Source: Escherichia phage BF17
Sequence record: MW822008.1
Reading direction: 5' to 3' (one strand)
DNA length: 64,000 nt
The notes under the pieces were generated by a model. The model saw nothing but the letters and a program-made list of their open reading frames with translations, had not been told where the DNA came from and did not search any database. Below, in pieces: positions 11,538 to 54,225 of this stretch. The first letter of the stretch is position 1. Each line of letters starts with the position of its first letter. Both the position numbers and the translations under genes were made by a program.

Positions 11538-11810
11538 ATGTACGCACTGTATAATAAAGAAAAGAAACGATTTGCTAAGGTTGAAATTTCGATTGATACA
11601 TTTGACATGTTGGAGTACTGTATTGTAACGGACTTATATGCTAACTTGTATTACGTTCTTGATGACGTATCAGTACTGCAACGATTGCTTGAGAATTCCA
11701 AAAGTCAATGCCAGGGCATCCATGATGGTTCATCTTATGAAACACCTGAGTGTTCCTACGGCTATCTGGACGGGTATGAGATTGTGAAGTTGGGTATTGT
11801 TGGATGCTGA
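11538..11810 (+). CDS. hypothetical protein
   Basis: ORF 11451-11810 trimmed to ATG 11538 after GGAG. Confidence 0.5.
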   Translation: MYALYNKEKKRFAKVEISIDTFDMLEYCIVTDLYANLYYVLDDVSVLQRLLENSKSQCQGIHDGSSYETPECSYGYLDGYEIVKLGIVGC

Positions 11811-12084
11811 AACAATGACCAATGATGAATTCATGGAATTTATAAAAAATATACAAAGTTCAAAAACTGGAGAAGAAAAAGAAACATATAAATTTAAAAG
11901 TTCAATAATACTTATGAAAATGAAATTGATTTCTCATACTTTTAATGAGAAGTATGATTTTATCTTTGTGAACAGTGACTACAATGATTTAGTTTATAAT
12001 ATAAATGTTTTGTGGGAAGAAGAACTACAAAGCAAAATACATACAGTACGAAAACCATTAAAAAATCCTTTCAAAACGGGTTGA
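11797..12084 (+). CDS. hypothetical protein
   Basis: 95-aa ORF; ends in terminator hairpin. Confidence 0.5.
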   Translation: MLDAETMTNDEFMEFIKNIQSSKTGEEKETYKFKSSIILMKMKLISHTFNEKYDFIFVNSDYNDLVYNINVLWEEELQSKIHTVRKPLKNPFKTG

Positions 12085-12110
12085 CTTCGGTCAGCCCTTT
12101 TTGCTATAAT
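12078..12110 (+). terminator. hairpin terminator with embedded -35 and TATAAT
   Basis: GGGTTGACTTCGGTCAGCCC TTTTTGC TATAAT. Confidence 0.6.
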
Positions 12111-12138
12111 CATTTCATCAAGACGAGAGGATGAATAC

Positions 12139-12654
12139 ATGACACGCATTAACTTAGTACACGTTAAAGAACTTGCTGACCAACATCTGATGGCTGAATA
12201 TCGTGAACTCCCACGTGTGTTTGGTGCTGTACAAAAACATGTTCAAGCACGTAAGCGAGTCCGTGATTTCAAAATTAACAGTACTTACCTGTTAGGTTCA
12301 GGTCATGTAACATTCTTCTACAACAAGTTATTGTACTTACAGAAGCGTCATATTGATATTGTTAACGAATGTTTGCGTCGTGGTATGAAGATTCAAAACA
12401 CTGAAGTAAACGACATTAGCGGATTCCCTGCTGAGTTTTGTAATGACTACGTACCATCGGAGTCAGAGATTAAAATGTCTCGTGAGCGTTTGATTGAGAA
12501 GATACAGATGAAGCCTATGTGGTATAAATTTACTGACGTTGAACGCCCACAGTACGTTAAAGATATGCAGGACGTAAGTGGTGATATAGAATCTAGTACT
12601 GATATGTTCGACGAAATTGAAGAACAAATCAAAGATGAAATGAATAATTATTAA
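12139..12654 (+). CDS. denV: pyrimidine-dimer DNA glycosylase / AP lyase (T4 endonuclease V family)
   Basis: MTRINL...[19 protein letters not shown]...VRDFKI...GHVTFFY closely matches T4 endonuclease V as I recall it; ~35-aa acidic C-terminal extension. Confidence 0.88.
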
Positions 12655-12660
12655 AGGAAA

Positions 12661-12693
12661 GGGTTGACTTCGGTCAGCCCTTTTTGCTATAAT
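12661..12693 (+). terminator. hairpin terminator with embedded -35 and TATAAT
   Basis: same unit as 12078. Confidence 0.6.
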
Positions 12694-24202: not shown

Positions 24203-24247
24203 ATTTCCTCCTTTATTCATTATACTATATTTAATATAAAAAGAAAA

Positions 24248-24266
24248 GCCAGTATCAAGTACTGGC
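24248..24266 (-). terminator. inter-cassette hairpin with T-run
   Basis: minus strand reads GCCAGTACTTGATACTGGC TTTTCTTTTT, then TATAAT, AAGGAGG, ATG. Confidence 0.6.
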
Positions 24267-24279
24267 ATAGTATTAAGGT

Positions 24280-25410
24280 TTAAATATTTTTATAATTAAT
24301 TTCTACATAGTTACGTTGTGTTCCAGTATATCCTGGAACATTACCTAAATTTCCATTACCTGCACCAAACAGACGTTCTCCGACTGCAAAATATGTCCCA
24401 TAGAAACAACCATCAAACACAGGAACATCATTATAATTTGATATGTAATTATCCATTGAATCCATTCTAGTGTATGCAGTCAGAGTTACATTTGTACCTA
24501 TACCATATGCACCATAAGGGTTAGTACCAGCAACATAATACCCAGTGGGTGTACATATTACTGGTGAATTTGCCCCTGATCTCGTGTGGATAAATCTAAA
24601 TGTACCTTCAGGTACTGGTGCTTCTTTACTGAATAATGTTGTAGCTACTACTGGGTAATCAATACCATAACTATTACCACTCAACCACGTTTTACCATCA
24701 CTATCTTTGAATAATGAACAGGATTGTGTGCATCCGAACAGATTCAAATTGGTTACATTTGGAAATTTACTAATTTGTGTATATACCAGAACTGTGGTTG
24801 CGGTAGCACTACCAAGTTGTCCACGACCATTATCACCCGCACTGTACATGTACCCATCGGTCTTTAATATTATACTAGCGTTTCCTAAAATATCAAAATC
24901 AACAACATCCGTTTGTGTTAATGTAGCTATAGGATAACGAAAATTCACTGCCTCACCAGTACCAAATTGACAATTGGTGTTTACCCCACATCCATATAAG
25001 TTGCCGTTTTGCATTAATATAAACAAACCTGTTGTCATTTTAATTTTCTTAATATTAAGAATATCTATATCTTGGAATATGTGTGTTACATTTACAAATG
25101 TGGTTGAGTTAACAGCACTTGAACCATAATAAGAACCGTTCCCGCTACCAAAGAATTCATCGCCTTTTCTGTACATTGCACATAGACTGCCACCCCATAC
25201 ATCATCAACTCCAGTGTCAATTTGAATAACTGAAGTAACACTAGTTGTTGCACCAGTGCCAAGTTCACCACCTGAATTGAATCCAAAACCATACAAATCT
25301 CCACTTTCGGTGAGCACCAAAACACTGTTAGTGGTTGTGCATGAAATCTTTTTGATATTATTAGATGGTCTTTTATTTCCGTACTTAACCATTCTTGCAA
25401 AAGGTAACAT
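24280..25410 (-). CDS. array member 5: RCC1-like repeat protein
   Basis: trimmed to MLPFARMVKYGN; GGELGTG and RGQLGS repeats. Confidence 0.7.
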   Translation of the reverse strand: MLPFARMVKYGNKRPSNNIKKISCTTTNSVLVLTESGDLYGFGFNSGGELGTGATTSVTSVIQIDTGVDDVWGGSLCAMYRKGDEFFGSGNGSYYGSSAVNSTTFVNVTHIFQDIDILNIKKIKMTTGLFILMQNGNLYGCGVNTNCQFGTGEAVNFRYPIATLTQTDVVDFDILGNASIILKTDGYMYSAGDNGRGQLGSATATTVLVYTQISKFPNVTNLNLFGCTQSCSLFKDSDGKTWLSGNSYGIDYPVVATTLFSKEAPVPEGTFRFIHTRSGANSPVICTPTGYYVAGTNPYGAYGIGTNVTLTAYTRMDSMDNYISNYNDVPVFDGCFYGTYFAVGERLFGAGNGNLGNVPGYTGTQRNYVEINYKNI

Positions 25411-53883: not shown

Positions 53884-54225
53884 ATGACTATCTCAATTGC
53901 TCAATCTAACTTTGAAAATGAAATCATCGCCCAGGCACTGCGTTTAAATGATGGTCGGGCCGAAATTAATTACGGTTTCAATTCAGGCGGTTGTGAAAAC
54001 TATCAGTACTTTGTAACTGCTGATGGCGGTGTCCTGGGCATCAATACCGTTATTGTAAACATTCAGAAAATTAATTTCAATGATCCAGACGATAGCCAGT
54101 TTTACATTGTAGGCGTAGACGTGAACTATGAGGATGACTCACTAACTGATGATCACACTGGCGAGAAGTTAGAAAGTGCATACGGTGAAGATGATTATCA
54201 GTCCGGTCCAGAAGATTTTGAATAA
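53884..54225 (+). CDS. hypothetical acidic protein
   Basis: trimmed to MTISIAQSNFE; 113 aa. Confidence 0.6.
   Translation: MTISIAQSNFENEIIAQALRLNDGRAEINYGFNSGGCENYQYFVTADGGVLGINTVIVNIQKINFNDPDDSQFYIVGVDVNYEDDSLTDDHTGEKLESAYGEDDYQSGPEDFE

Follow-up and report, generated by a model that had tools for sequence, protein, structure and literature searches.

The window, that is, the complete 64,000-nucleotide stretch of Escherichia phage BF17 DNA (MW822008.1) analysed here, derives from the Asteriusvirus group (121Q/PBECO4-like jumbo coliphages) and carries the denV coding sequence, the ortholog of 121Q gp217, at 12139..12654 on the plus strand. The open reading frame occupies exactly these positions with 171 codons plus TAA and an ATG start, and its C-terminal sequence reads as quoted in the preliminary description of this DNA. 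Immediately upstream, at 12078..12110 (+), lies a terminator hairpin with a terminator-like stem of 8 pairs and a T-run (GGGTTGAC-TTCG-GTCAGCCC), which would terminate the preceding cassette and which overlaps a sigma70-like promoter on the same strand (-35 TTGACT at 12081-12086, 18-nt spacer, TG-extended -10 TATAAT at 12105-12110; 11/12 promoter matches). This promoter would drive denV. It is followed by a Shine-Dalgarno-like GAGAGGA (12125..12131, +), as read from the sequence, whose GAGG core at 12127-12130 is located 8 nt 5' of the ATG. A second terminator hairpin and promoter unit, the downstream copy at 12661..12693 (+), would mark the end of the denV transcript and the start of the next cassette. 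The hairpin core occurs in 12 copies in the window, all on the plus strand, as compared to 0.01 expected. Flanked by two such terminator-promoter units, denV would be expressed as a single-gene early cassette.

The gene is the T4-type UV-damage repair gene denV, as judged from family, catalytic residues and predicted fold. On the DenV homology proposed in the preliminary description, PF03013, PHROG 1183, the match to T4 endonuclease V in the PDB and the predicted fold all agree. T4 endonuclease V (PDB 2END, 138 aa) aligns without gaps with residues 1-131 (E=2.8e-53; 61-64% identity), PF03013 (Pyr_excise) is matched with 55.2 bits at a cut-off of 23 (E=9e-15), and PHROG 1183 with E=1.4e-58 (residues 1-133 versus profile positions 1-137/139). 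The catalytic core, comprising codons 1-134 (12139..12540, +), is predicted to adopt the T4 endonuclease V fold: the AF2 model has a mean pLDDT of 90.3, with residue blocks 11-140 at 89-98, and its all-alpha arrangement of three helices (residues 14-36, 64-80 and 108-124) resembles 1ENI, 2END, 1ENK and 1ENJ in Foldseek comparisons (target-normalised TM 0.92-0.93; rmsd 1.0-2.0 Å). The N-terminal Thr and the AEYRE region, to which the preliminary description had drawn attention, both align to T4 endonuclease V, as the M-T-R-I-N N-terminus and AEYRELPR are found within the T4-aligned part. Thr2 directly follows the initiator Met, and its free alpha-amino group is reported to act as the catalytic nucleophile (Schrock and Lloyd 1991/1993). 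The catalytic Glu23 and the residues for basic DNA contacts (Arg3, Arg22, Arg26, Arg117 and Lys121) are likewise all present and aligned to T4. Residues M1, T2 and R3 as well as R22, E23, R26 and R117 are invariant in alignments of 12 and 72 sequences, and K121 is invariant in the former and nearly so in the latter. The window protein has in common with T4 endonuclease V (T4-PDG; PDB 2END, 1VAS, 2FCC) Thr2, Glu23, the Arg/Lys DNA contacts, the W-Y-K-aromatic segment and the predicted fold. In this segment (W128-Y129-K130-F131), Tyr131 of T4 is replaced by Phe, a conservative exchange frequently seen among the jumbo-phage sequences of this clade. The product is predicted to be a working T4-type pyrimidine-dimer DNA glycosylase/AP lyase, an activity that we propose tentatively and jointly with the tail mechanism discussed below.

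With 171 residues, the product exceeds T4 DenV by 33 residues and extends 40 residues past the alignable part. Whereas T4 endonuclease V ends at residue 138 with the basic sequence YGKAIYA, the window protein continues with 12 other residues and a 28-residue acidic tail. The Asp/Glu-rich extension past residue ~135 noticed in the preliminary description is borne out by the composition: residues 136-171 contain 11 Asp/Glu versus 1 Arg and 2 Lys, yielding a net charge of -8. The core (residues 1-135) has a net charge of +5 and a pI of 9.27 (T4: +5 and 9.38), and the pI of the whole window protein is 5.98. When the 155 open reading frames of the window with 60 aa or more are ranked by the charge of their last 20 residues, denV is the second most negative. 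Three segments follow the core. The first, codons 135-143 (ERPQYVKDM; 12541..12567, +), represents the start of an allele-specific 3' cassette; nucleotide similarity to the short-form phages PBECO4, Turkey3 and CMSTMSU stops at 12541. At the protein level, it corresponds to P-x-Y-Y-x-x-M, the clade-specific sequence with which the short forms end, and P-x-Y-[YVF]-x-x-[MIL] counterparts occur in all RaK2-like jumbo-phage DenV proteins; therefore, the truly optional acidic part comprises residues ~144-171 only. The second segment, codons 144-154 (12568..12600, +), is a variable polar/acidic spacer rich in S/T/D/N, which measures 0 to ~22 residues across relatives and is unalignable between subclades. 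The third, codons 155-171 (12601..12651, +), is a conserved terminal motif predicted to form an amphipathic acidic helix, with the consensus D-x-[FYL]-x-x-[IV]-E-x-Q-I-K-x-E-M. Its hydrophobic positions are F157, I160, I164 and M168 (hydrophobic moment up to 0.63), and E161, Q163-I164-K165 and E167-M168 are identical in all intact copies. The tail is thus modular, consisting of a flexible polar spacer and a conserved 17-residue acidic amphipathic helix.

The tail is present in 18 phage records, 17 of which match over all 171 residues. The same architecture is found in 121Q gp217 (YP_009101804 / AIT14107), annotated as 'endonuclease V N-glycosylase UV repair enzyme', and in proteins of identical length and annotation from Ecwhy_1, TH47, SP27, G17 and others. 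These 121Q-type proteins are 93-98% identical to the window protein, share the tail motif and differ only by point changes in the spacer, e.g. G148/D149 here versus S148 and K/N149; the deposited annotations inspected leave the tail unmentioned. Canonical homologs end 10-13 residues past W128 with a positive ending (+1 to +4) and the RaK2-like jumbo phages 17-20 residues past W128, whereas the long forms extend 40-52 residues past W128 with net charges of -5 to -9. Alignment, as the preliminary description had suggested, reveals that the tail is lineage-specific rather than common to all homologs: T4-like and marine homologs do not have it, nor do about half of the Asteriusvirus records (18 long versus 17 short). 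The short-form DenV proteins (PBECO4, Turkey3, phAPEC6, RaK2, GAP32, CBB) measure 144-147 aa, share the P-x-Y-Y-x-x-M ending and stop 1-4 residues past the conserved Met/Leu, with cores that are up to 98% identical (Turkey3). Nucleotide similarity between short and long alleles breaks sharply at codon 135 and restarts at the downstream terminator-promoter unit (12661..12693), and no relic of the tail was found 3' of the short-form genes of PBECO4, Turkey3, CMSTMSU, RaK2, GAP32, CBB and Kaldavass. Losses are of at least four kinds, namely 3'-end replacement (PBECO4, Turkey3, CMSTMSU), clean deletion (P0010 versus P0008), an apparent frameshift (P0012) and an apparent frameshift plus truncation (P0015), the frameshifts of the latter two being located in the spacers of metagenomic relatives. 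Taken together, the tail is specific to one lineage, in which it is patchily distributed and has been lost repeatedly. As about half of the Asteriusvirus phages lack it and losses recur, it is not needed for basic DenV function.

An ORF-calling or sequencing artefact (a missed stop codon or a frameshift, for instance) can practically be discounted as the origin of the tail. Nothing in this window points to it, and the only observations in its favour are the spacer frameshifts in the two metagenomic relatives. Conversely, the same 171-codon frame is present in independently sequenced isolates (8 aligned by codon; 17 matched over 171 residues), and the stop is located directly after the motif, just before the terminator hairpin. 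The 18 records, the indels that keep the frame and the retention of the motif in three subclades likewise dispose of the concern, voiced in the preliminary description, that the extension could be an annotation error.

Codon-by-codon alignment of 8 Asteriusvirus alleles yielded a pN/pS ratio of 0.087 for the core as compared to 0.69 for codons 135-154, while pN of the motif was 0.015. Between lineages, in comparisons that included synonymous differences, pN/pS was 0.21-0.44 for the motif versus 0.16-0.30 for the core. The spacer evolves nearly neutrally and tolerates in-frame deletions of 4 codons (ph0011) or 13 codons (P0003, P0004), in each case with the motif kept. P0003 and P0004, both devoid of the spacer, differ at 9 core positions, whereas their tails are identical and retain the motif. 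The motif is also conserved across three subclades whose cores are merely ~65-75% identical. The tail is therefore real and translated, and its motif is under selection. A rather improbable alternative is that the tail does little or nothing and is simply tolerated, perhaps slightly influencing solubility or stability, and that linkage and recombination in a mosaic early region keep it in place. The at least four kinds of loss, the near-equal numbers of long and short records and the near-neutral spacer would fit this scenario. However, conservation in three subclades, invariant residues and a between-lineage pN/pS of 0.2-0.4 argue against it, as do the in-frame spacer indels that preserve motif and stop, since a neutral tail would be expected to decay like the spacer.

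What might the tail do? The preliminary description had suggested altered DNA binding or a protein interaction, and both ideas are plausible. T4 endonuclease V reportedly scans DNA processively in a salt-sensitive, charge-dependent manner, and this scanning is reported to matter for repair in vivo (Lloyd 1980, Gruskin & Lloyd 1986, Dowd & Lloyd 1989/1990). We infer that the target of the tail is the DNA-binding face of the enzyme itself and that the tail's effect on DNA search is what has been selected. Accordingly conditional is our leading, albeit tentative, reading, in which the optional module on a working DenV serves as a shield that tunes DNA search. The tail (-8) would be tethered beside the basic DNA-binding face of the core (+5, pI 9.3) and could compete with DNA for this face by acting as a DNA-like shield on a tether. 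Non-specific affinity for DNA would then be lower, which would tune electrostatic scanning for dimers, and the enzyme could be trapped less often on undamaged DNA, of which a very large pool is present in a jumbo-phage infection. The shield reading is supported by the charge difference between canonical endings (+1 to +4) and long forms (-5 to -9). Moreover, the GAP32-like homolog P0027 carries a different tail that also has a net charge of -7, which suggests that acidity itself may matter. This tail has no significant motif match, and its interpretation as a divergent motif copy is unsupported, as 561/5000 shuffles score equally well. As a precedent, DNA-binding domains are autoinhibited by acidic disordered tails tethered to them, and such tails can quicken target search amid decoy DNA (PMC10250230).

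Several observations speak against the shield. In the AF2 model of the window protein, the tail forms one long helix (residues 138-169, pLDDT 67-83) that is not folded back onto the core; this is weak evidence, as the tail alignment was very shallow and the output consisted of confidence and secondary structure without coordinates. For the XbC2-type protein, AF2 predicts a helix, then a disordered stretch and then again a helix (pLDDT 45-59), with spacer pLDDT below 50 as compared to 67-70 in the window protein. Furthermore, the conserved non-acidic residues Q163, I164, K165 and M168 and the aromatic residue or Leu at position 157 are more specific than charge alone needs. The spacer-less P0003 and P0004 keep the motif, although fold-back would be geometrically harder for them, and about half of the Asteriusvirus phages do without the tail, having lost it by deletion, frameshift or 3'-end replacement.

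Some of these features would fit a different role, in which the terminal helix is a docking motif for another protein and the spacer a mere tether. Conceivable partners would be an SSB, a polymerase, a ligase or a recombinase of phage or host, on whose basic or hydrophobic groove the helix could fold upon binding; such docking might recruit DenV to a repair/replication complex or hand off the nicked product. The combination of a variable-length spacer (0-22 residues) with a conserved, sequence-specific helix that is hydrophobic on one side is typical for short docking motifs, spacer-less variants retain the motif, the AF2 helix is undocked, and patchy presence would be in accordance with a partner that is itself variably present. 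A glycosylase-tail precedent for partner binding is provided by the C-terminal domain of NEIL1, which is reported to bind replication proteins and mitochondrial SSB (references 36 and 102 listed in PMC12499884). Against docking, no candidate partner has emerged: a position-score scan of six frames detected no second C-terminal copy of the motif at any ORF end in the window or in bases 1-150,000 of 121Q, replication and recombination genes included. The best other match, the N-terminus of 121Q gp128, scored 36.6 versus 74 for the true motif and is probably due to chance. In addition, a tblastn query consisting of the last 20 tail residues matched Asteriusvirus denV only among 50,697 phage records, and no neighbouring gene was seen to co-vary with the tail. 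Profile searches had low power owing to the short motif and say only that nothing strikingly similar exists: a 46-column tail profile produced 137 word-sharing candidates from a 5.8-billion-protein index, none with E<=10, and a 33-position profile retrieved 0 of 1.84 billion representatives at E<=0.001. On balance, partner docking is possible, though somewhat doubtful, and we consider it nearly as likely as the shield.

That the tail represents a sliding-clamp-binding peptide of the T4/RB69 type is very improbable. The tail sequence STDMFDEI resembles the C-terminus of RB69 polymerase (...SLFDMFDF). This resemblance is local, confined to 'DMFD', and the 'MFD' core is unconserved, being EYE, PYE or QYD in other lineages. 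No similar C-terminus exists on 121Q replication proteins or on the ORFs of the 150 kb and the window, and the annotation of the phage polymerase describes a split enzyme that is Pol III-like, not gp43-like. A gp45 clamp homolog was undetected in the related phage CBB, which also counts against a clamp peptide (PMC5259590).

Comparison with known tails places the window protein among several precedents, none of which it matches in full. In mammalian base-excision glycosylases, disordered non-catalytic tails such as the C-terminal domain of NEIL1 likewise extend the glycosylase core, are absent from simpler homologs and bind partners, but they are much longer (~100 residues), eukaryotic and not homologous to the tail described here (references listed in PMC12499884). 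With the D/E tail of HMGB1 (PMC10250230), the window protein shares a net-negative tether beside a basic domain and an expected influence on both non-specific binding and the search for targets. However, long D/E runs are lacking in the window protein (longest run, 2 residues), and its tail, with a net charge of -8 beside the basic domain, is predicted to be helical and ends in a specific conserved sequence instead of low-complexity acid.

Single-stranded DNA-binding proteins (T7 gp2.5, T4 gp32, E. coli SSB) have acidic C-terminal tails that both shield the DNA-binding cleft of the protein itself and dock partners, the two roles weighed above, and that possess an essential terminal aromatic residue. 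Shared with the window protein are the acidic tail, the flexible tether and the basic DNA-binding protein, while the fold differs (all-alpha endonuclease V rather than OB fold), the window protein is a glycosylase and sequence similarity is lacking. The terminal aromatic residue is not a constant of window-type tails: most copies terminate in Y and P0008 in E (...EMNLE), and the conserved residues lie inside the helix. An analogous switch can nevertheless be envisaged, even if we regard it as unlikely: the free enzyme would shield its own face, and upon DNA binding the helix would be released to dock a repair/replication partner of phage or host. If true, such a switch would couple dimer incision to downstream processing, and the tailed, spacer-less and tail-less alleles on near-identical cores would provide a ready allelic series for testing scanning and hand-off in vivo in the repair of a 350-kb genome.

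DenV is the textbook example of lesion finding through charge-driven sliding along DNA. Here, a natural tethered tail of -8 offsets the positive charge of the core, and alleles without the tail occur with cores of up to 98% identity. This system may inform on what degree of non-specific DNA affinity is best for finding lesions in a cell full of phage DNA or, returning to the docking alternative, might reveal a DenV partner protein, of which we know none. The significance is modest, as the denV gene itself is ordinary and was annotated before; the C-terminal tail is undescribed and optional. In the literature, we found no paper on an acidic C-terminal tail of a pyrimidine dimer glycosylase, and the DenV proteins of 121Q-like phages were found only as gene listings. 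The motif D-x-[FYL]-x-x-[IV]-E-x-Q-I-K-x-E-M provides an additional C-terminal annotation for DenV of RaK2-like jumbo phages, and some of the 'alternative tails' in the databases are frameshifted copies of this terminal motif.

Database comparisons bore out that the protein encoded at 12139-12654 (+) is a DenV homolog whose first ~135 residues are T4-like, as the preliminary description had claimed from the sequence. The protein scores 55.2 bits against Pfam PF03013 (pyrimidine dimer DNA glycosylase; cut-off 23), its residues 1-133 align with positions 1-137 of the 139-position profile PHROG 1183 ('endonuclease V N-glycosylase UV repair enzyme'; E=1.4e-58), and residues 1-131 align without gaps with the T4 endonuclease V structures 2END, 1ENI, 1VAS and 2FCC (E~1e-53). 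An AlphaFold2 model (mean pLDDT 90.3) can be superimposed on crystal structures of the T4 enzyme (target-normalised TM scores 0.92-0.93, rmsd 1.0-2.0 Å). Except for Y131, which is replaced by F, the protein has all residues that we take to be functional in the T4 enzyme, that is Thr2 (after the initiator Met), Arg3, Arg22, Glu23, Arg26, Arg117, Lys121, W128-Y129-K130 and Y131. Thr2, Arg3, Arg22, Glu23, Arg26, Arg117 and Tyr129 are invariant in both a 12- and a 72-sequence alignment, Lys121 and Trp128 in the 12-sequence alignment. On sequence evidence, the assignment to the DenV family could hardly be more secure. In tblastn and megablast searches of the phage collection, the closest relatives of the window belong to Asteriusvirus, the genus of the 121Q/PBECO4-like jumbo coliphages (~350 kb; best matches Ecwhy_1 and TH47). 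Gp217 of 121Q is likewise a 171-aa DenV, shares 94% identity with the window protein and is annotated 'endonuclease V'. The gene is thus already known and annotated.

Comparison of DenV C-termini extracted from 90 loci revealed distinct classes of length and charge. T4-like and marine/metagenomic proteins end 10-13 residues past W128 (WYKYYGKAIYA and similar) with a net charge of +1 to +4, and those of the RaK2-like jumbo phages (RaK2, GAP32, CBB, PBECO4, Kaldavass) end 17-20 residues past W128 in [TS]-x-x-x-x-P-x-Y-[YF]-x-x-[ML]-x, with a net charge of +2 to -2. The long forms continue for 40-52 residues and carry a net charge of -5 to -9. The core of the window protein (residues 1-135; +5, pI 9.27) is as basic as its T4 equivalent (+5, pI 9.38), and residues 136-171 carry a net charge of -8, the whole protein having a pI of 5.98. 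The acidic extension reported previously is thus confirmed and, judged from these loci, is specific to one lineage.

We tentatively favour the view that the tail acts on the enzyme's own DNA binding. A peptide of charge -8 tethered beside a DNA-binding face of charge +5 should compete with DNA. The classical papers by Lloyd from 1980, Gruskin and Lloyd from 1986 and Dowd and Lloyd from 1989 and 1990, listed among the references of PMC12499884, are said to show that T4 endonuclease V finds dimers by salt-sensitive electrostatic scanning, and that repair in vivo is reduced when scanning is lost. Elsewhere, tethered acidic tails autoinhibit DNA-binding domains and speed target search amid abundant decoy DNA (PMC10250230).

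Alignment of the long forms (window, 121Q, ph0011, the metagenomic clusters P0001-P0004, P0008 and P0014, and Xanthomonas phage XbC2) resolves the tail into two parts, an S/T/D/N/E-rich spacer and a terminal motif. The spacer ranges from 0 residues in P0003/P0004 to ~22 in XbC2 and is unalignable between subclades. Every intact copy of the motif, e.g. DEYEDVERQIKEEMNNY in XbC2 and DPYEDIEQQIKDEMNLE in P0008, has the same E161, Q163-I164-K165 and E167-M168. The hydrophobic residues at 157, 160, 164 and 168 occupy a single helix face (hydrophobic moment up to 0.63), and AlphaFold2 predicts the motif to be helical in each of the two lineages modelled. One helix spans residues 138-169 of the window protein (pLDDT 70, 67 and 83 per successive ten-residue block); in P0014, helices at 138-155 and 164-177 (the latter with pLDDT 54-59) enclose a disordered stretch at 156-163 (pLDDT <50). 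Judged from model confidence and secondary structure, neither model places the tail helix confidently against the core; the tail alignment comprises only a handful of sequences. The main rival explanation, docking of the tail helix to another protein, would account for the sequence-specific conservation of the motif, the existence of spacer-less variants and the undocked helix in the models; however, no candidate partner is at hand, and we consider docking possible but somewhat unlikely. The two models are not mutually exclusive. SSB-type acidic tails both shield their own DNA binding and dock partners, and a DenV tail with both roles is a further, rather unlikely possibility.

Evolutionary rates differ sharply between the parts of the protein. 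Nei-Gojobori counts summed over pairs of eight Asteriusvirus long alleles yielded a pN/pS of 0.087 for the core (codons 1-134) and of 0.69 for junction and spacer (codons 135-154); in the motif (codons 155-171) pN was 0.015, about the core value, with zero synonymous differences. Between lineages (window, XbC2, P0008 and the shifted frame of P0012), motif pN/pS was 0.21-0.44 as compared to 0.16-0.30 for the core, and synonymous changes such as ATT/ATA, GAA/GAG and GAT/GAC were seen in the motif. The low pN of the motif and these between-lineage ratios, set against the value for the spacer, indicate that the motif is constrained at the protein level and the spacer nearly free. The spacer has lost 4 codons in ph0011 and 13 in P0003/P0004, each time in frame and with motif and stop still in place; the tails of P0003 and P0004 are identical despite 9 differences in the core. 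Taken together, motif constraint and in-frame spacer indels argue against a purely neutral tail and rule out an artefact of ORF calling, a possibility that the preliminary description had raised and that can be set aside with near certainty. Among the eight alleles, the 17 motif codons free of synonymous differences (window 12601-12651) compare with a pS of 0.15 in the core and 0.11 in the spacer, and the last 28 nt of the window gene match XbC2 at 26 of 28 positions, the XbC2 gene being 71% identical elsewhere. Codon bias in an AT-rich genome, recent spread of the segment or nucleotide-level constraint beside the terminator are possible reasons.

The gene is a single long ORF with an ATG start (171 aa), preceded by a Shine-Dalgarno-like GAGAGGA (12125-12131, +) whose GAGG core lies 8 nt ahead of the ATG. 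It is flanked by two identical 33-nt units, GGGTTGACTTCGGTCAGCCCTTTTTGCTATAAT, at 12078-12110 and 12661-12693 (both +), in each of which a GC-rich hairpin with T-run is combined with a sigma70-type promoter close to consensus (TTGACT, 18-nt spacer, TG-extended TATAAT; 11 of 12 positions match). Given these units on both flanks, denV seems to be a single-gene cassette equipped with promoter and terminator. The promoter agrees with the placement of the CBB gene (CBB_519) in an early region with RpoD-like promoters (PMC5259590). Minus-strand ORFs of 61 and 77 aa overlap denV and start within the repeated hairpin; we take them to be chance ORFs of an AT-rich genome.

In the phage collection, the tail motif is present in 18 records and absent from 17 closely related ones, so that it is far from common to all homologs. 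Of the motif-less records, that of Salmonella phage SD-2_S15 encodes a downstream fusion and the others encode short forms. Relatedness of the cores does not predict tail state. Indeed, the core nearest to that of the window belongs to the short form of Turkey3 (98% amino-acid identity); nucleotide identity in 11-codon blocks is mostly 97-100%, with two blocks at 91% and 88%, and drops to 64% from codon 133 on. BLASTN similarity of the window to PBECO4, Turkey3 and CMSTMSU ends at 12541 (codon 135) and returns near 12657 at the downstream terminator-promoter unit, which indicates that what distinguishes long from short forms is an exchanged 3' cassette with the repeated unit at its border. In a neighbour-joining core tree, motif-bearers fall into three subclades (Asteriusvirus; P0008 among RaK2-like sequences; XbC2/P0014 beside Kaldavass), each interleaved with short forms whose cores are 88-98% identical. 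Among metagenomic homologs, P0010 (146 aa) has the tail segment cleanly deleted relative to P0008, with homologous flanks. The seemingly different tail of P0012 (164 aa) reflects an apparent spacer frameshift, its +1 frame reading ...GEPDQYDEIEQQIKDEMQEY* with an intact motif, and P0015 (153 aa) retains a shortened relic in the +2 frame, ...ESSTDMYDEIEQQIK; either shift may be real or an assembly error. This deletion, frameshift and relic indicate that the tail is old in the clade and has been lost repeatedly. No relics were found 3' of the short forms in PBECO4, Turkey3, CMSTMSU, RaK2, GAP32, CBB and Kaldavass. Such frequent losses would suit a largely functionless tail, but with the motif conserved we regard this as improbable.

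In the SD-2_S15 protein (P0005, 242 aa), the annotated DenV continues after residue ~135 into unrelated sequence (...WYKFTDVEL joined to TISTIQRTKTF...). As this joint coincides with the point where long and short alleles diverge, the junction appears to be a recurrent breakpoint. A 268-bp segment at 11805-12072, missing from 121Q, PBECO4 and Turkey3 and present in CMSTMSU, encodes a 95-aa ORF (11797-12084, +), an insertion immediately 5' of the denV promoter unit; the sole match of this ORF is sub-threshold, to colicin/pyocin immunity PF01320 (17.4 bits, cut-off 21.2; E=0.005).

No second C-terminal copy of the motif turned up in a position-score scan that covered all six frames of the window and the first 150 kb of 121Q. 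The scanned part of 121Q holds genes annotated as SSB, recombinase (RecA), UvsY, UvsW-like helicase, primase, gp41-like helicase, RNase H, Dda-like helicase, polymerase pieces and a clamp-loader subunit; none of the listed C-termini of these replication and recombination proteins resembles the motif. When the final 20 residues were compared by tblastn with 50,697 phage records, only Asteriusvirus denV was recovered, and tail profile searches of huge protein collections, of low power for so short a query, found nothing. A clamp-binding peptide of the T4/RB69 type is essentially excluded, since the 'MFD' of the tail is unconserved, the polymerase genes of 121Q are annotated as Pol III-like fragments and the CBB genome paper does not report a gp45 homolog (PMC5259590). 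The best non-DenV match in the 150 kb is the N-terminus of hypothetical 121Q gp128, MFSEYEEAIKRNLEDY (record 74246-74599; about 24243-24293 in locus L092), with a score of 36.6 (true motif 74, other hits <=27); the resemblance is probably due to chance. A 113-aa ORF (53884-54225, +) ends in ...GEDDYQSGPEDFE and has a more acidic C-terminus (net -7 in the final 20 residues) than any other ORF of the window. It matches PHROG 18238 (unknown function; E=6e-57), shows a weak hit to a PHROG that is labelled DNA ligase (E=2e-8) and matches no Pfam family.

A GAP32-like DenV (P0027, 181 aa; locus L100, 539-1084) has a different tail of net charge -7, ...HDEFSEVADATWNEYYQENHF, ending ...NEYYQENHF, and its gene is followed by the same terminator hairpin as the window denV. 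The resemblance of this tail to the motif is not significant, as 561 of 5000 shuffles score equally well; it may represent an independent gain of acidity. A DenV homolog from a eukaryotic data set (eukprot; P0095, 214 aa; 53% identity over the core) carries yet another unrelated extension of ~75 residues, in which N, S, T, E and K abound.

The tail lies outside the family profiles PF03013 and PHROG 1183, the deposited records that we examined do not remark on it, and our literature search found no publication mentioning it. Functionally, it resembles the acidic tails of SSB, autoinhibitory tails of the HMGB1 type and those of mammalian glycosylases; however, it probably belongs to none of these, because it has no conserved terminal aromatic residue or OB fold, and its longest D/E run is 2 residues. 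A tail on a glycosylase will not surprise the specialist and its significance is modest, but tailed, spacer-less and tail-less natural alleles on near-identical cores provide a handy experimental series.

The hairpin core GGTTGACTTCGGTCAGCC occurs in 12 copies in the window with <=3 mismatches (at 970, 4564, 5344, 6925, 7607, 12079, 12662, 15422, 53681, 57287, 60555 and 62522, all +), as compared to 0.01 expected, and also in loci L001-L003, L008, L014, L093, L100, L101 and L103 of relatives. It is usually followed by TTTTTGCTATAAT, generating a combined terminator and sigma70-like promoter with the -35 box within the stem. The same hairpin sequence lies 3' of denV in RaK2-like phages, CBB and metagenomic relatives, whose DenV is only ~65-70% identical to that of the window, and it also sits at the borders of swapped gene cassettes. 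The repeat may be both a punctuation signal of the early region and a recombination substrate for cassette shuffling.
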